64,000 bases of DNA, taken from the NCBI GenBank assembly GCA_021735445.1, contig JAIPHA010000003.1:903-64902 (forward strand), given 5' to 3'. The stretch is from Candidatus Omnitrophota bacterium (GTDB taxonomy: Bacteria > Omnitrophota > Gorgyraeia > Duberdicusellales > 4484-171). Of the stretch, positions 175 through 64,000 are shown piece after piece. The position numbers were made by a program, and so were the translations under genes. Positions within the stretch are counted from its first letter, which is position 1. Every line of letters starts with the position of its first letter. The notes under the pieces are model-generated. The model did no database searches. It was not told the DNA's origin and saw only the letters and a list, made by a program, of their open reading frames with translations.

Positions 175-306
175 TCTGTTTTTTGATTATAAGAGGTTTT
201 GAGATAGCCGGAGGCAATTCGGGAGAGTTTTTCGGCAACAATTATTGTCCCTTCGGGACGCTTCGCCTGCGGCGAAGATTGTTTGCGAAACCCCTCGCCC
301 GCTTTT
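175..306 (+). repeat. tRNA-trailer module A: 111-nt insert (175-285) ending in a 7-bp hairpin (261-277), then a second copy of the tRNA-Gly 3' segment (286-306)
   Basis: The 21-nt exact direct repeat cgaaacccctcgcccgctttt occurs at 154-174 and 286-306. The insert is homologous to 55762-55863 downstream of tRNA-Arg (shared ttcggYaaYaRttat and gcttcgSctgcgScgaagatt blocks). Confidence 0.85.
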
Positions 307-10728: not shown

Positions 10729-11316
10729 ATGAAGAAAAAAAGTTCAACAAGAGAATGGATTGAATCAATAGTAGTTGCCGCGCTTTTAGTCGTAGTTTTA
10801 AAAACATTTTTTTTCCAAATGTATAAGATTCCTACTACTTCAATGGTTCCTACTCTTAAGCCTAAAGATAAGATATTTGTAAGCAAGTTAAGCTATGGGC
10901 CGAAGATGCCTTTTAATTTAGGCCGGCTGCCTGGATTCGCTGATCCGGAGAGAGGAGATGTGATAGTTTTTATACCGCCTCAAGAGGTAAAACAACCTTG
11001 GTATAGAAGAAAACCATATATAAAAAGAGTTGTTGGCTTACCCGGGGAGACTATCGAAATAAATAAAGGAAATATTCAGATTAACGGCGAGGAAGTTATT
11101 ATGCCGGAAGTTGCGGCTTTTTTTTATTATAACCAAGGCGAATACGCAAGAACAGGCAAAAAAGTAGTTGTTCCGGAGAAAAAATATTTTTGTTTGGGAG
11201 ATAATAGCATTAGTTCCAAGGATAGCCGTTACTGGGGTTTTGTCGATAAAGAGCAAATTATCGGAGAAGCAATTTTTATCTGGTGGCCGCCAAAAAGGAT
11301 CGGGATGATAGAATGA
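10729..11316 (+). CDS. lepB: Signal peptidase I
   Basis: N-terminal TM helix, catalytic Ser in the IPTTSMVPTL region, and GDNSISSKDSRYWGFV box E. Confidence 0.9.
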   Translation: MKKKSSTREWIESIVVAALLVVVLKTFFFQMYKIPTTSMVPTLKPKDKIFVSKLSYGPKMPFNLGRLPGFADPERGDVIVFIPPQEVKQPWYRRKPYIKRVVGLPGETIEINKGNIQINGEEVIMPEVAAFFYYNQGEYARTGKKVVVPEKKYFCLGDNSISSKDSRYWGFVDKEQIIGEAIFIWWPPKRIGMIE

Positions 11317-11633
11317 TTAAAAGTCCAACGTCTGAAGTCCAAAGTCTGAAGTCAATAAAGAATATTGGGTTATTGTTAGTGATCGGTTTGTTTTTAGCCG
11401 GTTGCGTCACAACTCAGGAATATGTCTATGAAGATGATGTTTTCAGAAAGAAGAGCGAGGTTTTAGACGAAAATCAAATTAAAGAAAAAAAGAAAGAGTG
11501 GATAGGCTCCTATTTAAAAGAAGATAGTTTGCCTAAACAGTGCCCAGTGTGCCGGAGAAGATATCAAATTTCTTTAGAAAAATGCCCTTATGATGGTACT
11601 GAGTTAGAGGAAATAGCAGAGGATAAACTCTGA
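11313..11633 (+). CDS. Hypothetical lipoprotein with a C-terminal CxxC...CxxxG zinc-ribbon-like motif
   Basis: Lipobox LFLAGC. The ATG at 11313 overlaps the lepB stop (ATGA), whereas the ORF-track start at 11283 lies inside lepB. The N-terminal 13 codons are encoded by a heptamer array. Confidence 0.45.
   Translation: MIKSPTSEVQSLKSIKNIGLLLVIGLFLAGCVTTQEYVYEDDVFRKKSEVLDENQIKEKKKEWIGSYLKEDSLPKQCPVCRRRYQISLEKCPYDGTELEEIAEDKL
11323..11353. repeat. Heptamer array gtccaac gtctgaa gtccaaa gtctgaa gtc
   Basis: The 7-nt register was read directly. It lies at the lepB/lipoprotein junction and is translated as SPTSEVQSLKS. Confidence 0.8.
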
Positions 11634-15435: not shown

Positions 15436-15918
15436 TTGAAAAGTTTCAGCAAGGCTTTAAGTTATGCCTACCTGCTCCTTCGCTATCGGCCAAGGAGTGA
15501 ATATGAAATTCGCCTGCGCCTAAGAAAAAAAGAGTTTTCTAAAGCAATTATCAGAAAAGTAGTCAGAAGCCTAAAAGATTATAATTATATAGATGATCAA
15601 GAGTTTGTAAAAAATTATGTTGAGAGTTCTGTTGCTAAAGGCTGGGGGCCGGTAAAGGTTGAATTTAACCTGAAAAAATTTAAGGTTGCAGCTAGATTAC
15701 GGAAGAAAGCTTTAGAGGAAATAGAAAGCCAAAGCGATAAGCTAATAGAAAAACTTTTTAAAGAAAAAATTTATTCTCTAAAGAAAAGTAAACCGGATCT
15801 AGATCAAAAAAAGCTAAAAGAAAAGGCAATAAGGTTTTTAGCAAATAAAGGGTTTTATTATAAAGATATATTTGTTTATTTAAACAGAATCGACCGGCAA
15901 GCAGATGAAAACAGATAA
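15436..15918 (+). CDS. recX: RecA regulator RecX
   Basis: LLRYRPRSEYEIRLRL and repeated three-helix modules; recA-linked position. TTG start. Confidence 0.8.
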   Translation: MKSFSKALSYAYLLLRYRPRSEYEIRLRLRKKEFSKAIIRKVVRSLKDYNYIDDQEFVKNYVESSVAKGWGPVKVEFNLKKFKVAARLRKKALEEIESQSDKLIEKLFKEKIYSLKKSKPDLDQKKLKEKAIRFLANKGFYYKDIFVYLNRIDRQADENR

Positions 15919-20809: not shown

Positions 20810-21442
20810 ATGATAGTAATTATTGACTATGGGATGGGTAATTTAGAAAGCGTAAAAAATGCTGTTTTATTTTTGGGGAAGGAAGCAGTTGTTACCGCTT
20901 CACCCGAAAGGCTACAATCTGCCAAAAAAATAATTTTTCCCGGGGTGGGTCATTTTGCCCAAGCCGTCAAGCAGTTAGAATCAAGAAGGTTGATTGATCC
21001 TCTAAAGGAAAAGATAAAAGAGGGAGTGCCTTTTTTGGGGATTTGTTTAGGGATGCATCTGTTGTTTGAAAAAAGCAGTGAAGCGCAAGGTGTTTCGGGC
21101 CTGGGGGTTATAAAAGGAAAAGTATCAAGATTTGACGATAACGGCTTGATTGTACCGCATATGGGTTGGAATCAAATTAAAAAAGTCCAAAGTCCAAAGT
21201 CCAAAGTCCAAAGTCAAGATGAAATGGTAGATTTGTTTGAAGGGATAGAAGATGGCAGTTATTTTTATTTTGCTCACTCTTATTTTTGCCAACCCCGCGA
21301 GAAAGTTGCCTTAGCGACTACCGATTACGGCCAAGAGTTTGTTTCTGCCCTGGGGAAGAAAAATATTTGGGGGATTCAGTTCCATCCGGAGAAAAGCCAA
21401 AAAAAAGGCTTAAAAGTGTTAGAAAATTTTTTAAAGGCTTAG
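20810..21442 (+). CDS. hisH: Imidazole glycerol phosphate synthase, glutamine amidotransferase subunit
   Basis: Class I GATase triad context (GICLGMHLL, PHMGWN, FHPEKS). It contains a ~10-aa insertion encoded by a heptamer array. Confidence 0.92.
   Translation: MIVIIDYGMGNLESVKNAVLFLGKEAVVTASPERLQSAKKIIFPGVGHFAQAVKQLESRRLIDPLKEKIKEGVPFLGICLGMHLLFEKSSEAQGVSGLGVIKGKVSRFDDNGLIVPHMGWNQIKKVQSPKSKVQSQDEMVDLFEGIEDGSYFYFAHSYFCQPREKVALATTDYGQEFVSALGKKNIWGIQFHPEKSQKKGLKVLENFLKA
21185..21215 (+). repeat. Perfect tandem (GTCCAAA)x4 plus gtc inside the hisH coding sequence
   Basis: gtccaaagtccaaagtccaaagtccaaagtc read directly; translated in frame as VQSPKSKVQS. Confidence 0.95.
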
Positions 21443-24385: not shown

Positions 24386-24844
24386 ATGAAACAACTCAAA
24401 GGAAAATTTGACGGTAGAGGTAAAAAAATAGCAATAGTGGTTTCTCGTTTTAATGAAGTAATCAGCAAGCGGCTGCTGGAAGGCTGTATGGATACTTTAA
24501 AAAAATGCGGCACAGATGATAAAAATATTTCTCTCTACTGGTCTCCGGGGTCTTTTGAAATTCCCCAAATTTTATCAAAATTACAGGTCAACAAATTTGA
24601 TGCAGTAATAACCTTAGGCGCGGTTATAAGGGGCGATACTCCTCATTTTGAATATATATCATCCGAGGTAACAAAAGGTATAGCTAAAATAGCCCAAGAC
24701 AAAAAAATTCCTATAGCCTTTGGAATAATTACAGCTGATACTATCGAACAGGCAACGGAAAGATCCGGGACCAAACAAGGGAATAAAGGTTCTGATGCAG
24801 CTTTTTCAGCTCTTGAAATGGCAAATTTATACAGCCAACTATAA
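24386..24844 (+). CDS. ribH: 6,7-dimethyl-8-ribityllumazine synthase
   Basis: IAIVVSRFNE, PGSFEIP and GAVIRGDTPHFEY motifs. The ATG at 24386 follows the GGAGGG RBS. Confidence 0.95.
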   Translation: MKQLKGKFDGRGKKIAIVVSRFNEVISKRLLEGCMDTLKKCGTDDKNISLYWSPGSFEIPQILSKLQVNKFDAVITLGAVIRGDTPHFEYISSEVTKGIAKIAQDKKIPIAFGIITADTIEQATERSGTKQGNKGSDAAFSALEMANLYSQL

Positions 24845-24847
24845 AAA

Positions 24848-24878
24848 GTCCTAGGTCCAACGTCCAATGTCCAAAGTC
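24848..24878. repeat. Heptamer array gtcctag gtccaac gtccaat gtccaaa gtc (left arm)
   Basis: The 7-nt register was read directly. The inverted partner array lies at 24915-24945 across an AT-only 36-nt spacer. Confidence 0.85.
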
Positions 24879-24914
24879 AAAAAATAATCTTTATTATTTA
24901 TTTTTAAAAATAAT

Positions 24915-36263: not shown

Positions 36264-36878
36264 ATGGAAATATTAATTACAGCCGGGCCTACCTGGGCGC
36301 AAATCGATAAGGTGAGAATTTTAACCAACCGATTTACGGGTAAAACCGGTCTTTACCTAGCCAATAAGCTAACGGCAGCAGGCCATAAGGTTACTTTGAT
36401 CGTAAACCCTTATTCACTCGGTAAGGTTGCAGGTATAAAAAGTTATTATTTTCATTATTTTGATCAGTTTAAAGATAAAATAACGGATTTGTTAAAAAAT
36501 AATAAATTTGATGCGGTAGTGCATATGGCAGCAGTAAGCGATTATTTACCTAAGTTTAAAGGCGAAGGAAAAATTCCTTCCGGGAAAAAAGATTTTGATA
36601 TTTCTTTGGTTCCGGCTCCAAAAATAATTAAAATTATTCGTAAACTGGCTAAAGAATCTATATTAATTCAATTTAAACTGGAAGTAGAAGAAAAAGGTAT
36701 TATTGATAAGGCCTACGAAAGCCTTAAAAAAAACGATTCAGATTATGTAGTAGCCAATGCTTTAGAATCTTTGGAAGAAGGCTATCAAGCACAATTGATC
36801 GATAAGCAAAAAAATATAATTAGAATCAACTCAAAAGACGATTTAGCCAAAGAAATTAATAACCTCTTAGCTCTATAA
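36264..36878 (+). CDS. coaB: Phosphopantothenate--cysteine ligase (stand-alone CoaB)
   Basis: ITAGPTWAQIDKVRILTNRFTGKTG and AAVSDY motifs of the CoaB half of Dfp. Confidence 0.85.
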   Translation: MEILITAGPTWAQIDKVRILTNRFTGKTGLYLANKLTAAGHKVTLIVNPYSLGKVAGIKSYYFHYFDQFKDKITDLLKNNKFDAVVHMAAVSDYLPKFKGEGKIPSGKKDFDISLVPAPKIIKIIRKLAKESILIQFKLEVEEKGIIDKAYESLKKNDSDYVVANALESLEEGYQAQLIDKQKNIIRINSKDDLAKEINNLLAL

Positions 36879-36880
36879 CC

Positions 36881-36915
36881 TACCAACTGTCCACACCCGG
36901 TGTGGACAGTTGGTA
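36881..36915. repeat. REP-like perfect hairpin (16-bp stem, 3-nt loop) upstream of the RAYT gene
   Basis: taccaactgtccacac ccg gtgtggacagttggta, with the arms exactly complementary. Confidence 0.9.
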
Positions 36916-36937
36916 TCAGGGGTGGGTAGGAGTAATT

Positions 36938-37597
36938 ATGGCGCAAAGAAAAGTACCTTTAGAGATCGGGCGAGTTTATCATCTGTTTTCAAAAAGCATC
37001 GCTGGGTTTACGATATTTCGGAATAATTCGGAATATCAAAGGATGAGAGATTTACTCATTTATTATAATTTTATAAATTTACCTTGGAAATTTTCTCGTT
37101 TTTGCGAGAGGAAAGACAAAGAAATTGCCTATGACAGATATTTTACCAAAACGGAGAAGTTGGTAGATATAATTGGTTACTGTATAATGCCTACCCATAT
37201 CCATTTAATCCTAAGGAATTTAGATTATAAGGCAATATCAACCTTTATGAGAAAAATCCTTAATAGTTACGCTAAATATTTTAATATTAAAACTAAAAGA
37301 AGAGGGCCTTTATGGCAATCTCGTTTTAAGAACGTTCTTGTTGAAACCGATCAACAACTTATTCATTTAACCAGGTATCTGCATTTAAATCCCGTAACAG
37401 CCCGTTTGGTGGATCAACCAGAAAATTGGGGTTTTTCATCTTACAAAGAATTTTTAGATGATATAGAGAAAAATAAAAGAATTTGCAGTTATTCAGGCAT
37501 TCTAAATATAAACCCTAAAGAATATAAGGATTTCGTAAATTCCCAGATAAATTATCAGAAAGAGCTGGCTGAATTGAAAAAAATGTGGATAGAATAA
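36938..37597 (+). mobile_element. REP-associated tyrosine transposase (RAYT; IS200/IS605 Y1 HUH family)
   Basis: HUH motif CIMPTHIHLIL and the catalytic-Tyr region LTRYLHLNPVTARLV...WGFSSY. It is flanked by related hairpins. ATG at 36938 is preferred, because the GTG at 36902 lies inside the hairpin. Confidence 0.85.
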
Positions 37598-37600
37598 GAC

Positions 37601-37634
37601 CTTACTGTCTGCACCCGGTGTGGACAGTGGTAGG
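37601..37634. repeat. REP-like imperfect hairpin downstream of the RAYT gene
   Basis: cttactgtctgcac ccg gtgtggacagtggtagg. The right arm is near-identical to the right arm of the 36881-36915 hairpin. Confidence 0.8.
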
Positions 37635-37674
37635 GGTTTACAGAGGGGGCCGGAGGTATTAGAATAGGATTGCT

Positions 37675-51341: not shown

Positions 51342-51426
51342 TGCCCTCGAGAGGATTCGAACCTCCATTTCCTTTTAGGAAACTAGCTCCTGAAGCTAGC
51401 GTGTCTGCCAGTTCCACCACGAGGGC
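51342..51426 (-). tRNA. tRNA-Leu (anticodon CAG)
   Basis: The reverse complement gives acceptor GCCCTCG/CGAGGGC, anticodon stem CTAGC/GCTAG with loop TTCAGGA, a long variable arm TTTCCTAAAAGGAAA and T arm GGAGG-TTCGAAT-CCTCT. It lies 3 nt from tRNA-Ser. Confidence 0.93.
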
Positions 51427-51435
51427 GCAAATAAA

Positions 51436-51470
51436 GTCCATAGTCAACGGTCTATTGTCCATAGTCAAAG
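51436..51470. repeat. Heptamer array gtccata gtcaacg gtctatt gtccata gtcaaag
   Basis: The 7-nt GTCNNNN register was read directly; it lies immediately upstream (in gene sense) of tRNA-Leu. Confidence 0.8.
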
Positions 51471-55387: not shown

Positions 55388-55392
55388 TTACC

Positions 55393-55627
55393 ACAGAGAA
55401 CACAAAATGCAGGGGGCAGCCGTTTTACAGAAGACACAGATAAGGTGTTGGCGTAGATGGTACAGATTGCAAGAGATAATTTAGATAGCCTTAATAAACT
55501 TACAGAGAAAATAATTGGGTTAGCAATAGAGGTAGATAAAAAAATAGGGCTAATATTAAATTTTGCAAATACTCGTTTAGAAATAAAACGAGTGATAAAT
55601 TAATTTTTCTTTCTCTGTGTTCTCTGT
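55393..55627 (+). repeat. Inverted-repeat-bounded cassette holding the GxxExxY gene remnant
   Basis: acagagaacaca at 55393-55404 is the exact reverse complement of tgtgttctctgt at 55616-55627. The right repeat recurs at window nt 47-58. Confidence 0.7.
55498..55603 (+). pseudogene. Remnant of a GxxExxY-family (PD-(D/E)XK-like) gene: N-terminal and C-terminal ends joined, with a frameshift
   Basis: It reads LTEKIIGLAIEVDKKIGLILNF, then shifts +1 in the T-run at 55561-64 to ANTRLEIKRVIN-stop. The ~90 central codons that carry the GxxExxY motif in intact family members are missing. Confidence 0.6.
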
Positions 55628-55668
55628 AAAGCATGTTATTGTTCGGATTCAGTGTAATCTGTGAGTTA
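55570..55668 (+). repeat. Conserved tRNA-upstream flank, copy B
   Basis: 55570-55641 is identical to window nt 1-72, and the remainder is partly conserved up to the tRNA-Arg start. Confidence 0.9.
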
Positions 55669-55742
55669 GCGCCCGTAGCTCAATCGGATAGAGCATCGGC
55701 CTTCTAAGCCGAGGGTTGCAGGTTCGATTCCTGCCGGGCGCG
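55669..55742 (+). tRNA. tRNA-Arg (anticodon TCT)
   Basis: Acceptor GCGCCCG/CGGGCGC, D arm GCTC-AATCGGATA-GAGC, anticodon stem TCGGC/GCCGA with loop CTTCTAA, and T arm GCAGG-TTCGATT-CCTGC. Confidence 0.95.
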
Positions 55743-55761
55743 TGTTCATTTTAGTTTGATA

Positions 55762-55902
55762 AGCGTTTTGCCAAGTGAGGCTTGATTTTGTTCGGTAATA
55801 GTTATCGGAACAAATAAAATCAGTTAAGGTAAGCAGGAAGCTTCGGCTGCGCCGAAGATTTGTTTCGATTCCTGCCGGGCGCGTGTTCATTTTAGTTTGA
55901 TA
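55762..55902 (+). repeat. tRNA-trailer module B: 102-nt insert (55762-55863) with hairpin 55841-55857, then a second copy of the tRNA-Arg 3' part plus its 3' flank (55864-55902)
   Basis: The 39-nt exact direct repeat ttcgattcctgccgggcgcgtgttcattttagtttgata occurs at 55723-55761 and 55864-55902. A copy of the T-stem 5' strand (gcagg) also lies at 55833-55837, 26 nt before the repeated T-loop. Confidence 0.88.
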
Positions 55903-55932
55903 GCCGATAAACTATCAGAAGGAGGAGAAAAA

Positions 55933-58549: not shown

Positions 58550-58625
58550 GGTGGGTGTAGCTCAGGGGCAGAGCTCTTGATTGTGGTTCAAGTGGCCGGG
58601 GGTTCAAATCCCCTCACCCACCCCA
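58550..58625 (+). tRNA. tRNA-His (anticodon GTG) with encoded G-1 and CCA
   Basis: GGTGGGT/ACCCACC acceptor including the G-1:C73 pair, anticodon stem CTTGA/TCAAG with loop TTGTGGT, T arm with TTCAAAT loop, and a terminal CCA. Confidence 0.93.
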
Positions 58626-60101
58626 GTTTGGATACAAGGAGCGTTCAGCCAATAGGTTGAACGCTTTTTTGTAATGTGGGTTTAGTTTTTTTCCATCGAG
58701 GGTGCAGTTCGAAAGTACGATATTTAACATTTTAGCTCTTTCGAACTTATTTTGGCGTAAATAGAGGGGGAGGATCTTATTGGCAAATTCAAGAATCTTT
58801 AATCCTTCTTCTGTATAATCAAAATCTTTATTTTGATAATTTATAAGTTTTTCATTGATATTCTTTAATTCTTCCTGCCAATCCGAGCTTAAACTATCAT
58901 AAGTTTCTTCGGGTATTTTTCCGTCTATCTTATCAACATAAATTTTCTCAAGGCGTTTTTTAAGTAAATTCTTTCTTTTTTCAAGATTTTCTGATTGAGC
59001 TTTCCGGTATTCACATTGATCTTTATTTTCATTTTTAAAAACTTTCCGGCAATGATTTAATAATTCTTCATCTATACTTATTTTTTTTATTGCCTGAAAC
59101 AACATATCTGCGATCTTTTCTTCTCTTACATAAGTTAACTTACAGCCTCTATAACCTGTACAGCGATAATAAATAAATTTTTCTTTATGTATTTCTGCAG
59201 TAATAGAGGAACCACATTTAGCGCACTTTAGAAGGCCGGCATAGGCAAACCTCCTTTTTCGTAGTCTATGGGGCTTATTGAAGCGCTGAAATGATTTTTG
59301 GACCATATTAAAAAGCTTCTTAGATATCAGAGGAATATGCTTTCCTTGGCAAAGTTTTCCACTCCAATAGAAAGAACCAGTATAAAAAATATTTTTTAGC
59401 ATTTTATCAATAAAAGAAGTATGGATTTTTTTACCGGTCCTTGAACGAAGGCCTTCTTCATTAGCTATATCTCTCATCCTTTTAAGCGAATATTGTCCTG
59501 TAGAATATAATTCAAATAATCTCTTTATAAGGGGAGCTCGAGTTTGATCAATTTCAATTGTTTTTAAAACCCGATCATTTTCTTTTTTAGTTACATTTTT
59601 ATAACCTAGTGGAGCAAGGCCGGGGAATATTCCTTCCTGGGCTTTTTGATTCATCCCTTTCTTGCTTTCTTCAGAAAGGTTATCAATATAATGTTTAGCT
59701 ATTAAAGCTTTAAAGCCAAACATAAGTTTATCGCTTGATCTGGAATGTTTATCTAAAACAAAATTCTCTTTTACTAAGATGATTTTTATATCGGATTCAT
59801 TAATTAATGAATCTAATGTAGCTATATCTTTGAAATTGCGAGATAGCCGATCAGTTTTTTCACAAAGAACAATTTTAATTTGACGATTTTTCTTTAAGAA
59901 CTTGACCATATCAACAAAATTTTTCCGTCCGGATTGTTTTGCTGATTCTATATCAACAAATTCTTTAACTACAGAATATTTATTTTTTAATGCATGATCA
60001 TAAAGATATTTTTTCTGGGCAGGAATAGAATAACCTTCTTGTTCTTGCTCTTTGCTTGAAACTCGGGCATATAGGATTGCTTTTTCCATCTTAATTTGCA
60101 T
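58614..60101 (-). CDS. Large serine recombinase (integrase)
   Basis: N-terminal resolvase domain with catalytic Ser (AILYARVSSKEQ), a recombinase domain, a zinc ribbon (CAKCGSS...YYRCTGYRGC) and a coiled coil. The last 12 nt lie inside tRNA-His. Confidence 0.9.
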   Translation of the reverse strand: MQIKMEKAILYARVSSKEQEQEGYSIPAQKKYLYDHALKNKYSVVKEFVDIESAKQSGRKNFVDMVKFLKKNRQIKIVLCEKTDRLSRNFKDIATLDSLINESDIKIILVKENFVLDKHSRSSDKLMFGFKALIAKHYIDNLSEESKKGMNQKAQEGIFPGLAPLGYKNVTKKENDRVLKTIEIDQTRAPLIKRLFELYSTGQYSLKRMRDIANEEGLRSRTGKKIHTSFIDKMLKNIFYTGSFYWSGKLCQGKHIPLISKKLFNMVQKSFQRFNKPHRLRKRRFAYAGLLKCAKCGSSITAEIHKEKFIYYRCTGYRGCKLTYVREEKIADMLFQAIKKISIDEELLNHCRKVFKNENKDQCEYRKAQSENLEKRKNLLKKRLEKIYVDKIDGKIPEETYDSLSSDWQEELKNINEKLINYQNKDFDYTEEGLKILEFANKILPLYLRQNKFERAKMLNIVLSNCTLDGKKLNPHYKKAFNLLAERSLYPNWGG

Positions 60102-60140
60102 TATATTAATTTAATTATTTATATCAAGTTTAATTTATTT

Positions 60141-60437
60141 TTAAAAGCAAGGCCAAATATCATTTTTAATTTCTTCACACCTTAAACATTTTTTGCTATT
60201 GCAACCTTTTTTGTCTAAATATGCTAGTCTAATTTCTCCTTTTTGACTTAATTTATACCTACCAAAGCAATCTTTTTTAACTAGATTTTGTTTTTCTAAA
60301 AAAAGTAAATAAGATATTGCTCCTGATTTACTATGGTTAAAGTCTTTTATAATGTCTTTATAGTCTATAACTTCTTTTTCGTTTATAAAAGCTAAAACCA
60401 AATGTTTAATTTTTTTATTTTGTTTTTGCATTTTCAT
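60141..60437 (-). CDS. Small winged-helix DNA-binding protein with a C-terminal Cys cluster
   Basis: MarR/ArsR-like recognition region (GAISYLLFLEKQNLVKKDCFGRYKLSQKGE) and CNSKKCLRCEE...WPC. Confidence 0.5.
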   Translation of the reverse strand: MKMQKQNKKIKHLVLAFINEKEVIDYKDIIKDFNHSKSGAISYLLFLEKQNLVKKDCFGRYKLSQKGEIRLAYLDKKGCNSKKCLRCEEIKNDIWPCF

Positions 60438-60484
60438 ACCTCCTTTTAAGCTAGTTTAATTTTCTATATTAAATCGATTTATTT

Positions 60485-61267
60485 TTAATTAAGATTTATA
60501 TTTTTGTAATCATTTTTATTTAAGCGAAAGTCTTTTAATTCTTTTTCTAATTCAAATTCAATTATCCAACTATCGTTCCCACATTTTTCACATTTGAGTT
60601 TACTTTTTAAAGGTTTATTGCCATACAAGCTTCCAAATGGTTGTATCAAACGACTTTTCTTAAGAACTCTGTTATATACTTCTTCTTTTCCGTTTACTTT
60701 AGGTGGTTTAAAAAAATACTTAAGAATATACTTAAGGCCTTTTTTAGGGGTATGAGCTTTTCTTATATCTACTATGGGGCTGTCTCCAGTTAATTCTAAC
60801 CAATCCCTTGATATTTTTTGTTGGGGAAGATATCCTTCCTTTTTTGAGCTAGCTTCAATTAGAGCATGAATATGAATATTCCAACCTCGTCCTTTATTCG
60901 TTATTTCAATTACATACAGTCCGCCTTTGATTCTTCTTTTATAATATTTTTTTCTTAAGAACTTGTTAAAACATTTTCTAATAAACTTTATATCTTTTTT
61001 ATCTAAATAAGATTTATTTTTAATAGTTAAAGTTAACAATTTCGGATTAACCATAGGTTTAACTAATTCCAACCAACCTTTTAAAAGTTTAAAATAAGTT
61101 CTTCTGCGACATTCCGGACAAGTTCGATCGCTGCATTTAAGTTTTACCATTACCGGTTCTCCACATTGTCCACAATAGAGAGTTATAGTCCGATGTGAAC
61201 TTATTCCAGTATTATCAAGTGAAGAACTATTATCATTATTAATTAATTTAAATTCATCTGTAATCAT
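60485..61267 (-). CDS. HUH rolling-circle replication initiator-like endonuclease with zinc ribbons
   Basis: The three RCR motifs occur in order: KLLTLTIKN (motif 1), WNIHIHALIE (HUH) and LKYILKYFFKP (YxxxY). There is an N-terminal CGQCG...CPEC and a C-terminal CEKCG. Confidence 0.65.
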   Translation of the reverse strand: MITDEFKLINNDNSSSLDNTGISSHRTITLYCGQCGEPVMVKLKCSDRTCPECRRRTYFKLLKGWLELVKPMVNPKLLTLTIKNKSYLDKKDIKFIRKCFNKFLRKKYYKRRIKGGLYVIEITNKGRGWNIHIHALIEASSKKEGYLPQQKISRDWLELTGDSPIVDIRKAHTPKKGLKYILKYFFKPPKVNGKEEVYNRVLKKSRLIQPFGSLYGNKPLKSKLKCEKCGNDSWIIEFELEKELKDFRLNKNDYKNINLN

Positions 61268-61282
61268 AATATAGCCTCACTG

Positions 61283-61392
61283 AAGGGATTCTTTTGGGCC
61301 AATGCACCCGGAAAGCCCTGGCGGGCTCCCCGGGTCCCTGCATTGACCGGCCACCCCAATTGGGTCTGGCCCCTTCGGGAGAGAAGATCCCT
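61283..61392. other. GC-rich structured island (candidate ncRNA/leader, or double-strand origin for the adjacent Rep)
   Basis: Closing stem aagggat 61283-89 with atccctt 61386-92; a three-tier hairpin at 61297-61352 (agccc-tggc-gggct tip); palindrome cccaattggg at 61355-64; a c-ttcg-g mini-hairpin near 61373-78. The base composition is far more GC-rich than the flanks. Confidence 0.6.
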
Positions 61393-61417
61393 TTTAGAAA
61401 CTCTGTCCGAAGGATTT

Positions 61418-61693
61418 TTAATTTTTACTGTTTTCATATTCTTCTAGGATGTCTTTTGTTAATTCTGCTTTTAAGCCTTTGCTTAATTCCAGAAGATCAA
61501 AGTATTTAGTTTGTCCATTTTTTCGGTAAACTATTTGAGGAAAACCAACCCAGGGGCCGGAGCCTTCTCCTTCAATAACCCGGAAGCTTTTAATACTTAT
61601 CTCTCCCTGTTCTGTAATCCAGGAAACACTAGCAAAAGCCTTAAGTGCTCCTGAATTTTCTAATCTTTTTAAACTTATTGTTTTGTTTTTCAT
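61418..61693 (-). CDS. SpoVG-like nucleic-acid-binding protein
   Basis: LKAFASVSW...FRVIEGEGSGPWVGFP...LTKDILEEY aligns by eye with the B. subtilis SpoVG pattern RMRAIASITL...IRVIDGNNGLFVAMP...AVLNEY. Confidence 0.6.
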   Translation of the reverse strand: MKNKTISLKRLENSGALKAFASVSWITEQGEISIKSFRVIEGEGSGPWVGFPQIVYRKNGQTKYFDLLELSKGLKAELTKDILEEYENSKN

Positions 61694-61773
61694 TTTTTCT
61701 CCTTTTTTAAAATTAGTTATTATTTTTAATCCTAAAAATTAACGGGGGATGGAGGTGACCTTATACAATACAT

Positions 61774-61923
61774 TTAATCTCCTTTTTTGCTTTGCCATTC
61801 GATTAACAACTTGATAAACTCCAGACAGTCCCGATTTATTTCTTCCGCCTCAGCTTCTGAAATACGATAGCCAAGCCGGCGTGAGAAAATTTCGATTGTT
61901 TTTTGAATAAGTTTTTGATTCAT
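61774..61923 (-). CDS. 49-aa hypothetical protein (below the ORF-track size cut-off)
   Basis: The minus strand reads MNQKLIQKTIEIFSRRLGYRISEAEAEEINRDCLEFIKLLIEWQSKKGD-stop. It is co-directional with, and lies between, two element genes. Confidence 0.4.
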   Translation of the reverse strand: MNQKLIQKTIEIFSRRLGYRISEAEAEEINRDCLEFIKLLIEWQSKKGD

Positions 61924-62017
61924 TTTTTACCAAAGAATTATTTATCCCTCGGTAAAAAATATATCATCTGAATAGGATATTGAAGAGGTGATAGTAAGGG
62001 GAGGGGGGTTATTTTTC

Positions 62018-62851
62018 TTAAATTAGATCTTTGTAGCCGCTATTTATTAAATCAAGACACTTGTTATAACCAATCATAACTTTTCTTTTAGTATTCTCCG
62101 GAAATATTTCTTTAGGATATACTTTCTTTGCTATTTTTCTCCAACCTATACCGGATTCTCTTAGATCGTAGATAGCGAGGTAATTAAGGTATTCTTCAAG
62201 TCTTGCCCTTGTATTTTTTTTCTTTGGTTGGCTTCTTTTGGCACTATCTATAAAAAATTCAACTGTGGCTAAAATCATCGGTTTTGGATATTTTAAATTT
62301 ATAGAAACATTCAGGATATTTTGATTTGTCTTTTTTTTGTTCATTAGATGAGGAAGAATTATAAAAGCCGGTAAAATTGCATTATCTCCTAAAGAAGTTT
62401 TTTGCGCACTTTGTAAAAATCCCATAAGTAGAAAGAAAAAATACTCGAACTTATCAATAAAAATGGTTTCCCCCAAATTGGTTACCCATTTTTCAGGATC
62501 GTCAATAACAAGTTCATCTATGTTTTCAATTCCAAAAGAGGGGCTAAATAAAACAGGCATTTCCCATTTTTTTAGTAATTCTAAATAACGGGTGAGAGCT
62601 TTCTCCCATTGTCGGTGATCTCCGAAAATTTTTTCCCATTGCTGCATTTGTTCGAATGGAGGTGTTTTATTCTTGTAAGAGCTATTAACTATTTTTTTTA
62701 TCTTTTTTCTATCTATTTTTACGTTACCAAAAAATTCATCTATAGGTTTAAAGTCTTTTATAAAATCAGTGTTTCTCCTTAAAAATTCCCATTTATACAG
62801 AAAAACTAGTAATTCACGTTTCCCGGCTTCAATCTTTTCTTTTTTACGCAT
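62018..62851 (-). CDS. Mobile-element regulator-like protein with an N-terminal WEFLRRN motif and a C-terminal HTH-like region
   Basis: YKWEFLRRNTDF resembles the DUF6499-type motif of ICE regulators. The C-terminal LEEYLNYLAIYDLRESGIGWRKIAKKV resembles a DUF2285-type HTH. Both are recalled family patterns and were not searched. Confidence 0.4.
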   Translation of the reverse strand: MRKKEKIEAGKRELLVFLYKWEFLRRNTDFIKDFKPIDEFFGNVKIDRKKIKKIVNSSYKNKTPPFEQMQQWEKIFGDHRQWEKALTRYLELLKKWEMPVLFSPSFGIENIDELVIDDPEKWVTNLGETIFIDKFEYFFFLLMGFLQSAQKTSLGDNAILPAFIILPHLMNKKKTNQNILNVSINLKYPKPMILATVEFFIDSAKRSQPKKKNTRARLEEYLNYLAIYDLRESGIGWRKIAKKVYPKEIFPENTKRKVMIGYNKCLDLINSGYKDLI

Positions 62852-63066
62852 ATTTATTATTATAGCAATATTTCATATTATTTAAACTAGCTTATAAGTA
62901 TACAAAATTTATTATTTTTTAGGGTTTGAGCTTTAGATGTAAAGGTGGTAAAATTAACAAAAAGCATGTTTTTTGATTACATTCAGTTATGGGAGTAGGG
63001 TTTTTATTGCTTTGTTTAAAATTTGAGCATCTGGATTTTATTTTTTATAAGTAATAATATATTATT

Positions 63067-64000
63067 ATGGCAAAAAAAAGAATAGCGCTTGTAACTCCAT
63101 CAGTTTTAAAATGGGCTAGAAAATATAGAAATTTTTCTGAAGAAGAAGTTGCCAAGAGATTAAAGCGCTCAAAAAAAGAAATTATAGCCTGGGAGGGGGG
63201 TAAAGATAGCCCTTCTCTTGCTCAAGCTCGCAGAATTTCTGAAATATATAAAGTTCCATTAGCTGTATTTTACTTACAATCTCCTCCTAAGAAATTTTCG
63301 ATATTAAAAGATTATAGAAAAGTACCAACTGATTATCCAAGGAAAGACACTCCTCAATTATCTTTCCTAATTAGTGAACTCGAAAACAAGCAGGCGTGGC
63401 TTAAAGAATATTTCTCTTTTGAACAAAAAAAGAAGCTAAATTTTATAGGGAGCGCTAAGCAGGAGGATCCGATCCGATCCGTAGTAAAAAGTATGCGTAA
63501 GAATTTATCAATTTCTGTATCTAACCAAATAAAGATATCAAAAAAAAGTGATTTTCTAAGATTTCTGATCAGAAAAATAGAAGAAGCTGGGATATCAGTA
63601 TCTAGGCAAGGAAGAGTGGGGAGGACAAGAATAGAATGCATTGAAATCAGAGGTCTTGCTATATGCGATCAATTAGCTCCTTTTATTTTTATTAATTCAA
63701 ATGATGCAAAATCAGGTCAGATTTTTACTCTAATTCATGAATTAGCACACCTTTGGATTAATAAATCTGGTATATCAAATATTTCATATATCGATAGAAA
63801 AAATTTTAATTCAATTGAAATTTACTGCAATAAAGTTGCTGCTGAATTCTTAATGGATTCTGATTATTTTTGGGATATGTACAATCATGAAAAGAATAAA
63901 TTGCCCCTTTTAAAACTCATCGAAAAAATAAGTGATAAATTTAAAGTTAGCCCCGAAGCAGTATCTTTAAAACTAAAAAACAAAGGAAAAATAAGTTCAG
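63067..64000 (+). CDS. XRE-type HTH fused to an ImmA/IrrE-family zinc metallopeptidase (3' end beyond the window)
   Basis: ATG at 63067, open to the window end (311 codons), hence absent from the ORF track. It has an N-terminal HTH (SEEEVAKRLKRSKKEIIAWEGGKDSPSLAQARRISEIYKV) and the HEXXH motif FTLIHELAHLW. Confidence 0.8.
   Translation, partial: MAKKRIALVTPSVLKWARKYRNFSEEEVAKRLKRSKKEIIAWEGGKDSPSLAQARRISEIYKVPLAVFYLQSPPKKFSILKDYRKVPTDYPRKDTPQLSFLISELENKQAWLKEYFSFEQKKKLNFIGSAKQEDPIRSVVKSMRKNLSISVSNQIKISKKSDFLRFLIRKIEEAGISVSRQGRVGRTRIECIEIRGLAICDQLAPFIFINSNDAKSGQIFTLIHELAHLWINKSGISNISYIDRKNFNSIEIYCNKVAAEFLMDSDYFWDMYNHEKNKLPLLKLIEKISDKFKVSPEAVSLKLKNKGKISS

Follow-up and report, generated by a model that had tools for sequence, protein, structure and literature searches.

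Two hairpins in the window, the whole stretch of 64,000 nucleotides of an Omnitrophota genome that we analysed, are copies of one helix (P3) of a larger conserved three-helix fold and not stand-alone features. The fold is found in short units behind tRNA and tmRNA genes, each followed, wherever the context is visible, by a copy of the host gene's 3′ end. We consider that these units probably constitute a family of small non-autonomous mobile elements that enter the T-loop/3′-end region of tRNA-type genes, with the fold as their cis-acting module.

Two hairpins with a paired substitution

Each of the window hairpins lies about 90 nt downstream of a tRNA gene. Copy A (positions 261–277, CTTCGCCTGCGGCGAAG) and copy B (55841–55857, CTTCGGCTGCGCCGAAG) both consist of a 7-bp stem and a TGC loop, have a free energy of −10.4 kcal/mol when each is folded alone, and are identical except at stem position 6 and its partner, a C-G pair in A and a G-C pair in B, exactly as a first-pass annotation of this DNA had read them. 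A pattern search of the window in which three mismatches were allowed, and for which 0.24 matches are expected by chance, returned both hairpins and one coding match with two mismatches at 15508. The same annotation had described the surrounding sequences as diverged, which is true only in part: conservation extends to the G preceding the stem, the ATT after it and, about 25 nt upstream, a segment of 11 nt. It had further taken the swap as the mark of a structure under selection and not of a neutral scar. Because the two copies in the window are too few to establish selection, the test rested on 24 further copies in other genomes, and these bear the idea out, in that the stem is intact in all 24 distinct members and three of its seven pairs carry compensatory changes.

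Insertions between repeated tRNA 3′ ends

Both hairpins lie within insertions flanked by two copies of the 3′ end of the adjacent tRNA gene, with the following features.

99–171, + strand: intact tRNA-Gly(GCC), host or target gene of insertion A (ARAGORN; Rfam tRNA, 68.7 bits)
154–174, + strand: proximal repeat of tRNA-Gly, T-loop C56 to discriminator T73 plus 3 nt, CGAAACCCCTCGCCCGCTTTT (sequence, repeat search)
175–285, + strand: insertion A, 111 nt without an ORF, a T-rich 5′ part and then the structured module (sequence; orthologues L016 and L021)
230–242, + strand: P1 5′ strand of copy A, TT-TCGGCAACAAT (covariation, MFE fold)
247–259, + strand: P2 hairpin of copy A, GUCCC-UUC-GGGAC, containing C(UUCG)G (fold)
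261–277, + strand: P3, hairpin copy A, CUUCGCC-UGC-GGCGAAG (sequence, pattern search, fold; paired in all 24 distinct copies)
278–290, + strand: P1 3′ strand of copy A, the 8-nt linker AUUGUUUG (278–285) plus C56–A60 of the duplicate (286–290) (covariation, fold)
286–306, + strand: distal copy of the tRNA-Gly 3′ end, C56–T73 plus TTT (sequence, repeat search)
55669–55742, + strand: intact tRNA-Arg(TCT), host or target gene of insertion B (ARAGORN, Rfam)
55723–55761, + strand: proximal repeat of tRNA-Arg, T54 to G73 plus 19 nt (repeat search; 39 nt, 100% identical to the distal copy)
55762–55863, + strand: insertion B, 102 nt between the repeats, without an ORF (sequence, locus comparison)
55804–55815, + strand: P1 5′ strand of copy B, A-TCGGAACAAAT (covariation, fold)
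55841–55857, + strand: P3, hairpin copy B, CUUCGGC-UGC-GCCGAAG (sequence, pattern search, covariation, fold)
55858–55869, + strand: P1 3′ strand of copy B, the linker AUUUGUUU plus C56–U59 of the duplicate (covariation, fold)
55864–55902, + strand: distal copy of the tRNA-Arg 3′ end plus 19 nt (repeat search)

At the tRNA-Gly gene, positions 154–174 are identical to positions 286–306 over 21 nt. The distal copy is preceded by no tRNA 5′ part, and Rfam calls no tRNA there at E ≤ 10; the proximal copy is part of the working tRNA. Counterpart sites that lack insertion A occur at four other loci (L046, L047, L049 and L050), and insertion B has a homologue behind the same tRNA in the MAG Tobar14m-G24 (L031), as the outer of two units in an array. 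Repeat searches and a covariance model detected no such repeat or unit at the remaining tRNAs of the window, four of its six real tRNAs.

A second repeat, a 94-nt 'leader', lies upstream of both host tRNAs, and the window starts inside it. In a locus of assembly GCA_021735325.1 from the same organism (L007), the leader is the end of a 129-aa PDDEXK_3 gene with flanking 14-nt inverted repeats, and the window's second copy of this cassette has a 243-nt internal deletion. The leader is the 3′ tail of an unrelated small nuclease-gene cassette that is separate from the element. A 22-mer of the leader had no match in the viral, genome or metagenome collections. We considered a tie between the cassette and the units, which are adjacent in this genome, and rejected it on finding the cassette absent beside the same units in MAG G24.

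A family of units behind tRNA and tmRNA genes

Searching for the exact pattern GCTTNGNCTNCGNCNAAGATTNNNNNCGA, with N at the variable positions, gave 27 loci in species-representative genomes and 9 in metagenomes. True members account for 16 of the genome loci and 3 of the metagenome loci (two are labelled Planctomycetia); the other 11 and 6, respectively, are chance matches in coding sequences. Because the N positions are unpaired in the chance matches from Aquabacterium/Leptothrix, the pattern itself does not impose pairing, and these matches serve as a negative control. A covariance model built from 20 units then added more divergent copies behind tRNA-Ser(GCT) and tRNA-Arg(ACG). Altogether we found 26 copies, nearly all of them from Omnitrophota MAGs. 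Their hosts comprise at least 10 tRNA species as well as tmRNA (Gly-GCC, Arg-TCT, Arg-ACG, Val-TAC, Lys-CTT, Ser-GGA, Ser-GCT, Glu-CTC, Leu-TAG, Pro-GGG and tmRNA); diversity is under-sampled, since most copies were found by an exact pattern that fixes five of the seven P3 pairs. All inserts are 102–130 nt long, and none of the 26 copies contains a gene or ORF. The L007 locus supplies a third hairpin copy, CTTTGAC-TCC-GTCAAAG, which has two additional compensatory pairs, keeps the 8-nt spacing and is then followed by the 3′ end of tRNA-Leu(TAG).

The general hairpin pattern had no match in viral contigs, and the six matches there to a narrow version of it are one phage coding sequence (CFDCDEDF) with an A/A mismatch, which we attribute to chance. 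Plasmid and phage collections searched by blastn with 11-base words gave no match. No Rfam 15 family matches the units: the gathering threshold returns tRNA only, and at E ≤ 10 no match in 90–330 or 55660–55910 covers the module. The element is not described in the literature searched.

A covarying three-helix fold

The fold occupies the 3′ half of the insertion and has the order P1-(P2)-P3. P1 is a closing helix of 11–13 bp with one fixed G mismatch. Its 5′ segment (11 nt, TCGG-A-N-N-C-A-A-U) lies approximately 25–45 nt upstream of P3, and the complementary 3′ strand (A-U-U-G-N-N-U-N-C-G-A) is composed of an 8-nt linker and the CGA of the repeated T-loop, the duplicate's first 3–5 nt making up the end of the helix. 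P2 is an optional and variable hairpin, often UUCG-capped; the C(UUCG)G cap is found in five unit types (Gly, Leu, Ser-GGA, Ser-GCT and Glu). P3 is the 7-bp hairpin, which has a U-N-C loop and is stacked on P1, with zero linker to the P1 3′ strand. The MFE folds of the window copies give P1-(P2)-P3 (z = −4.05 and −3.03), and RNAalifold recovered the same helices unaided from nine whole units, extending P1 by two pairs into T-loop positions 59–60. In copy A, the duplicated T-loop contributes A289 and A290, which pair with T231 and T230, respectively, and in copy B, A55804 pairs with T55869 (T-loop nt 59).

Covariation in an alignment of homologues, which the first-pass annotation had proposed as the deciding evidence, favours a conserved structure. 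Across the 24 distinct copies, standard pairs fill 94.8% of cells, compared with 80.9 ± 1.1% in shuffles; 0 of 500 shuffles reach the observed value, a count that is not a probability because the copies are phylogenetically related. When the partners were slid by 1–3 columns, pairing fell to 26–47%. Eight pairs show double changes among these copies, three in P3 and five in P1. In P3, pair 4 occurs as CG/UA, pair 6 as CG/GC/AU/UA, and pair 3 has one UA to CG change; the P1 types are AU/UA, CG/GC/AU and CG/AU/UA, and no cell is broken at any of its five double-change pairs. The P1 5′ strand lay outside the search pattern, and the covariation of P1 is therefore independent of how the copies were discovered. 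One copy behind tRNA-Ser-GCT, found by the covariance model only (L010), has a wholly different P1, AUAUACU/AGUAUAU, and a third compensatory P3 pair.

On the + strand the helices contain seven G-U pairs and zero A-C pairs. The UUCG caps, together with G-U pairs without A-C pairs on the tRNA-sense strand, favour RNA over a DNA/protein site, and the fold is probably read as RNA on that strand. Two further candidates were rejected. A helix P0, which would pair the 13-nt tail with the unit's 5′ part into a tRNA-like closure, is good in only 4 of 16 units, and overall, cognate tails pair no better than non-cognate ones (Wilcoxon p = 0.23), so that P0 does not characterise the family. An origin of the unit from a tRNA copy was suggested by a D-arm-like stretch seen by eye; alignment to eight tRNA 5′ parts gave z mostly below 2.

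Could the hairpin simply end the tRNA transcription unit as an intrinsic terminator? A consensus scan does call both window hairpins terminator-like (7 bp with five G-C pairs, then ATTGTTTG or ATTTGTTT). In about half of the family, however, the stem is followed by 8 nt that are not rich in U (AUUGCAUA, AAGUAUAU and also AUUGCUUA), and because these 8 nt covary with the upstream strand of P1, it is pairing and not U content that is conserved. A terminator is thus a very unlikely explanation.

Pairing with the duplicated T-loop

In every copy with visible context, the 8 nt 3′ of P3 lead into a copy of the 3′ end of the host tRNA (C56–N73, 18 nt), which may run past N73 by 0–6 nt or more, up to +19. 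The distal repeat starts 109–128 nt past the tRNA or tmRNA end, the exception being the Pro-GGG unit, where it is farther away and P2 is longer. In all cases the unit is co-directional with the tRNA. The repeat always begins at C56, also behind a tRNA with the T-loop TTCAAGT, where it starts with CAAG, so that the junction lies after position 55. In 19 of 21 units, T-loop nt 59 has its pairing partner in the base immediately 5′ of TCGG (U:A, A:U, G:C or C:G, that base named first), and this base tracks the host tRNA even within one scaffold subfamily. Because this base tracks nt 59 and P1 extends to positions 59–60, the first five nt of the duplicate belong to the selected structure. A folded single strand is under selection, with the target-derived T-loop bases included.

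In IS608, a guide pairs with the cleavage site, and the pairing of P1 with the T-loop resembles this arrangement. A single-stranded DNA element moved by an HUH enzyme (IS200/IS605-, REP/RAYT- or IS91-like) would use the hairpins as binding sites and the P1 5′ strand as its guide to a T-loop cleavage site. Consistent with such an element are the strand-specific hairpins near one end, the fixed 8 nt from the hairpin foot to the junction, the internal segment that pairs with and tracks the target-derived nt 56–60, and two proteins encoded in the window.

36902–37597, strand not given: Y1_Tnp-like (Y1 transposase-like) gene (protein annotation of the window)
60485–61267, strand not given: Rep/IS91-like protein gene in an island at tRNA-His (protein annotation of the window)

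Nevertheless, we regard movement by an HUH enzyme as quite improbable. That enzyme family makes no target duplication, and the element would need to carry a tRNA-specific 3′ end. The Y1 gene is flanked by hairpins that are unrelated to P3. P2 has UUCG caps, for which we know of no special role in DNA. Finally, we considered a pC194-type nick motif: a CTTGATA-like sequence lies in the 5′ part of certain units but is not a conserved feature of the family.

Gain and stacking of units

The gene order frr–tRNA-Lys–tRNA-Leu(TAG)–tRNA-Gly–ptsN–yvcK–HPr–ptsI is conserved in relatives, and at tRNA-Leu(TAG) a unit is present in this organism and in G24 and absent from four loci (L021, L046, L047 and L050). 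Without a unit, this site has the sequence ...CGACTCTCCCCCGCGGCA|GTTAGTAAAAAAC; with one, it becomes ...GGCA-GTTAGT-[unit]-CGACTCTCCC(C/T)CGCGGCA, and in G24 the native flank comes next. Because the tRNA-Leu and tRNA-Gly sites are filled here and empty in syntenic relatives, the units are lineage-specific gains that duplicated C56–N73. The tRNA-Leu site hints that native flank was duplicated de novo, although microhomology confounds this: the 5′ ends of the units also begin with (T)AGT, so that the bases duplicated beyond N73 are partly ambiguous. Remnants of older units likewise confound the extent of the duplication past N73.

Units also accumulate beside one another. The tRNA-Arg-TCT gene has one unit in the window versus two different units in G24 (L031/L014), tandem units lie at Ser-GGA and at tmRNA, and one array consists of three identical units with a 138-nt period (L026; other arrays are L031, L010 and L011/L015). 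Repeat copies at the outermost positions are often decayed, and near-identical scaffolds occupy different tRNAs. Units have thus been gained at many tRNA-type genes, and the tRNA was left intact each time.

Integrases that target tRNA and tmRNA genes reportedly have as their classic signature a direct repeat that extends from the T-loop to the tRNA 3′ end. The units might accordingly be integrative elements that have decayed or been miniaturised, comparable to the cis-mobilisable elements that lack an integrase; their repeats would be the attL and attR sites of a T-loop-crossing integrase, and their fold would be an attP arm or a site for the recombinase or an accessory protein. The repeats have this form (C56–N73 plus 0–19 nt), tmRNA is among the targets, newer units stack beside the tRNA and push older ones outward, and within the window an island with a large serine recombinase abuts tRNA-His. 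Partial tRNA genes that arise when genetic elements integrate are documented (PMC9897764). Three observations nonetheless make this origin rather unlikely. First, no gene occurs in the 26 copies, and given inserts of this size, a double-stranded circle of ~130–145 bp is implausible. Second, related scaffolds are located at 10 or more tRNA species with matching repeats, and a repeat borne on attP would need to be rebuilt each time. Third, the UUCG caps and the covariation point to a folded single strand and not to a duplex protein site.

Conservation after insertion

Orthologous units are 84–98% identical, versus 42–80% for their flanks. Between orthologous units of different species, 4 of 306 paired positions and 26 of 227 unpaired positions differ (Fisher p = 4e-7, approximately nine-fold), and two of the four paired differences form one compensatory pair; unpaired stem substitutions at the rate of the flanks, which the first-pass annotation had named as evidence against its idea, are not what we see. 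In the 15-nt tail, 5 of 135 sites differ, four of them in one decayed outer copy. Purifying selection acts on the stems after insertion. Chance similarity or the neutral scar of a local duplication, which the window with its mere two copies might by itself suggest, is made extremely unlikely by the compensatory changes and the stem-specific conservation across the copies of the family.

Conservation of the stems and of the 18-nt tail would be expected of an RNA useful to the host and not of a dead copy of a selfish element, and in this respect it speaks against a mobile element. As part of the tRNA transcript, the coaxial stack of P1 and P3 (~20 bp), tail included, could be a processing site (e.g., for RNase III), a 3′ protection or an insulator. 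Purifying selection on the stems and tail of orthologous copies would agree with such a role, as would the orientation, which always matches that of the tRNA, the position of units between the tRNA and the next gene (ptsN or a DUF748 gene) and the RNA-type tetraloops. A host function would, however, leave the tRNA-specific duplication, the arrays and the empty sites unexplained, and because units are absent from the same tRNAs in close relatives and from four of the six tRNAs in the window, they are dispensable and lineage-specific. We therefore think it unlikely that a host role is the primary explanation; as a secondary (domesticated) function, it is compatible with the units being mobile elements.

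A proposed mode of mobility

How might mobile elements of this kind spread? We propose that the element inserts in the T-loop/3′-end region, where the long target duplication would keep the tRNA intact, and that the fold, whose closing helix pairs with T-loop nt 56–60 of the duplicated target, may be a cis-acting recognition or priming module. Mobility would proceed by a mechanism that generates the duplication: the cut might be staggered, or an RNA might be copied by target priming, with its 3′ end annealed to the conserved T-loop. Because one scaffold family serves at least 10 tRNAs, a duplication made at each site fits better than a tRNA-specific repeat carried by the element.

The ends of the units align at shuffle level (p = 0.24–0.90) and thus show no terminal inverted repeats, and the units have no A-rich tail; no known transposition chemistry is therefore directly indicated. 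None of the copies is linked to a transposase, an integrase or a reverse transcriptase, nothing recurs near units at other loci, and searches of viral, plasmid, phage, genome and metagenome collections gave no autonomous version. The proteins of the window are housekeeping ones, apart from the Y1-transposase-like, large serine recombinase and Rep/IS91-like proteins.

A bolder and more doubtful idea, though a possible one, is that these are the first bacterial short elements of a retroposon-like or otherwise nucleic-acid-guided kind that home to the universally conserved T-loop of tRNA. In the retroposon-like form of this idea, the transcript of a resident copy would end in T-loop sequence (C56–N60...) held in P1; this end could anneal instead to T-loop DNA nicked in any tRNA gene and prime copying of the element, and the resulting 18-nt duplication would rescue the tRNA. 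In that case, the base of P1 that follows nt 59 might be a programmable determinant of specificity.

Implications

The units represent a structured nucleic-acid family with solid covariation, without a match in Rfam 15 or a description in the literature searched, from a phylum known almost only through metagenomes. They exemplify how an insertion can enter an essential tRNA gene and leave it intact; the route seems to be the conserved T-loop and not gene-specific sequence. That these probable small non-autonomous mobile elements use a mechanism not yet known in bacteria is less likely than not, but a real possibility. If the fold does act as RNA and pairs with its target, it may point to a compact, retargetable insertion system and a new enzyme; if it is used by the host, it would be a new kind of processing or insulating element of tRNA transcripts. 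There are also practical consequences. Repeated tRNA ends and units break assemblies, several contigs here starting or ending inside them, and units with their repeats can pass for tRNA fragments in annotation.

Comparison with known systems

Intrinsic terminators share with the units a G+C-rich hairpin and, in one subfamily, the U-rich tract next to it, but the tract after the hairpin is paired in P1 here and is not U-rich in the other subfamilies. MITEs derived from DDE transposases are similarly small; the units differ from them in having no terminal inverted repeats and a duplication of at least 18 nt whose extent varies by site, in place of a short and fixed one.

The ends of IS200/IS605 elements and the PATE/REP elements also have strand-specific sub-terminal hairpins, with an internal sequence that pairs with the target or cleavage site. 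They use tetra- or pentanucleotide targets, make no duplication and have unrelated hairpins, whereas the units have an 18–39-nt repeat at every site.

Integrases of the Cas1 type insert at tRNA 3′ ends or at the leader-proximal repeat, and family-2 casposons and CRISPR spacer integration thereby resemble the units in duplicating a defined segment and in the polarised growth of arrays. Casposons, however, have terminal inverted repeats, genes and duplications of 14–15 bp, and the units, unlike CRISPR spacers, are mutually homologous.

The attC sites of integrons likewise keep their structure while the sequence varies; their closing helix contains a fixed mismatch, their inner structure varies, and they, too, form arrays. 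The P1 strands of the units read TCGGANNCAAU / AUUGNNUNCGA, without the R″/R′ core (RYYYAAC ... GTTRRRY); there is no cassette ORF, and the target is a tRNA with an 18-nt repeat.

Elements that spread by target-primed retroposition, of the SINE/LINE and R2 types, are also short, non-coding and fixed in orientation; their 3′ end is structured, and they duplicate long stretches of the target that vary somewhat in length. As in R2, the 3′ flank of the units could anneal to the target. A SINE-like retroposon would make its target duplication anew at each site and have a structured 3′ end; in the units, every repeat corresponds to its own host tRNA and the 3′ module has been conserved, but the duplication of native flank hinted at by tRNA-Leu is confounded by microhomology. 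The likeness is one of inference: the units have no A-rich tail, no reverse transcriptase has been identified, neither a reverse transcriptase nor an endonuclease being seen in the window, and we know of no such mechanism in bacteria apart from group II introns.

Integrative elements that target tRNA and tmRNA genes resemble the units in using the 3′ part of the gene, in their T-loop-to-end direct repeat, in leaving the gene intact and in forming stacked arrays. The units differ from them in being 102–130 nt long with no gene or recombinase and in having a conserved single-strand fold with RNA-type loops. Moreover, one lineage of integrative elements would be expected to use one or very few tRNAs, whereas related scaffolds are shared here by at least 10 tRNA species and tmRNA.

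Conserved features of the unit

One position of P1, the closing helix of the three-helix fold of the gene-less unit, does not behave as an ordinary base pair. In the alignment of the unit copies (A3, columns 6/76), the 5′ strand carries an invariant G that faces U, A or G, and in the window it appears as G235 opposite G285 and as G55808 opposite T55865. This G forms a G-U pair in only six of 23 copies. It is a conserved mismatch or bulge, and we consider that it might be a recognition feature.

How uniform are units that share a single site? At tRNA-Arg-TCT of the genome Tobar14m-G24, two units are stacked (locus L031, 60-284; compared with window 55743-55885), and their 3′ 62 nt are about 98% identical. 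This segment is the scaffold, the structured 3′ part of the unit, with its unpaired middle part included. In contrast, the 5′ halves of the two units are only about 65% alike, a difference that implies that the scaffold is either strongly constrained throughout or copied locally.

At a tRNA-Val site in another assembly (L017, 4622-4670), the distal repeat copy, the duplicated tRNA 3′ end beyond the unit, is followed by CCA and by a good terminator hairpin (CCACTTTTTTGGGAACAAAAAAGTGG). The proximal copy, which belongs to the working tRNA, has no encoded CCA. This arrangement would fit a distal copy that is the original gene end. Separately, in the tmRNA array of the genome ELA036 (L015, 50-110), a 28-nt palindromic insertion, tgcctacgctaaagctacggcaggcagg, splits the duplicated tmRNA 3′ end of the outer unit.

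Other probable insertions

A small nuclease gene, PDDEXK_3 (PF13366), is carried by a cassette delimited by 14-nt inverted repeats (ACAGAGAACACAGA / TCTGTGTTCTCTGT):

1-98, window: PDDEXK_3 cassette
55389-55668, window: PDDEXK_3 cassette, with a 243-nt deletion between AAAAAAAT(A/T)GGGC repeats
148-670, L007 (GCA_021735325.1, same organism): PDDEXK_3 cassette

The cassette starts 3 nt past the tRNA-Pro 3′ end in the window and 3 nt past the duplicated tRNA-Leu end in L007, and in Tobar14m-G24 (L014) tRNA-Pro is adjacent to tRNA-Arg without it. The cassette has the look of a selfish element in its own right, with tRNA spacers as its targets. The first base of the window falls within a copy, which suggests an assembly break there.

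Short repeats of the AAGTC(C) type, grouped in arrays, make up a second type of structured insertion within tRNA spacers. In relatives, such arrays build long, imperfect palindromes. These are inserted between tRNA-Lys and tRNA-Leu in L021 (1996-2097) and L047 (9593-9677) and are absent there from L046; in L046 (9477-10000), the arrays lie on both sides of a gene for 23S_rRNA_IVP (PF05635), which is located between tRNA-Gly and ptsN. Similar arrays were observed at gene ends in the window (11311-11355, 21173-21231, 24822-24880 and 51424-51468).

A further gene is inserted directly after a DFP/coaBC-like gene:

36902-37597: Y1_Tnp (IS200-like/RAYT-like) gene; whole region 36871-37643

Near-identical 25-nt palindromes (ACTGTCCACACCCGGTGTGGACAGT) flank it in inverted orientation. 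The 'tRNA-Phe(aaa)' that ARAGORN predicted at 36540-36630 is likely a false positive, being located within the DFP/coaBC-like coding gene and having no Rfam confirmation.

The right end of the window contains:

58551-58625: tRNA-His
58614-60101, minus strand: large serine recombinase gene
60485-61267, minus strand: Rep_1/IS91-zinc-like gene, the next gene

No second repeat for a tRNA-His element was found within the window. The recombinase gene abuts or overlaps the tRNA-His 3′ end, and the G+C content falls from about 0.37 to 0.30-0.33 in this region; positions 58551-64000 are probably a plasmid- or phage-like element integrated at tRNA-His.
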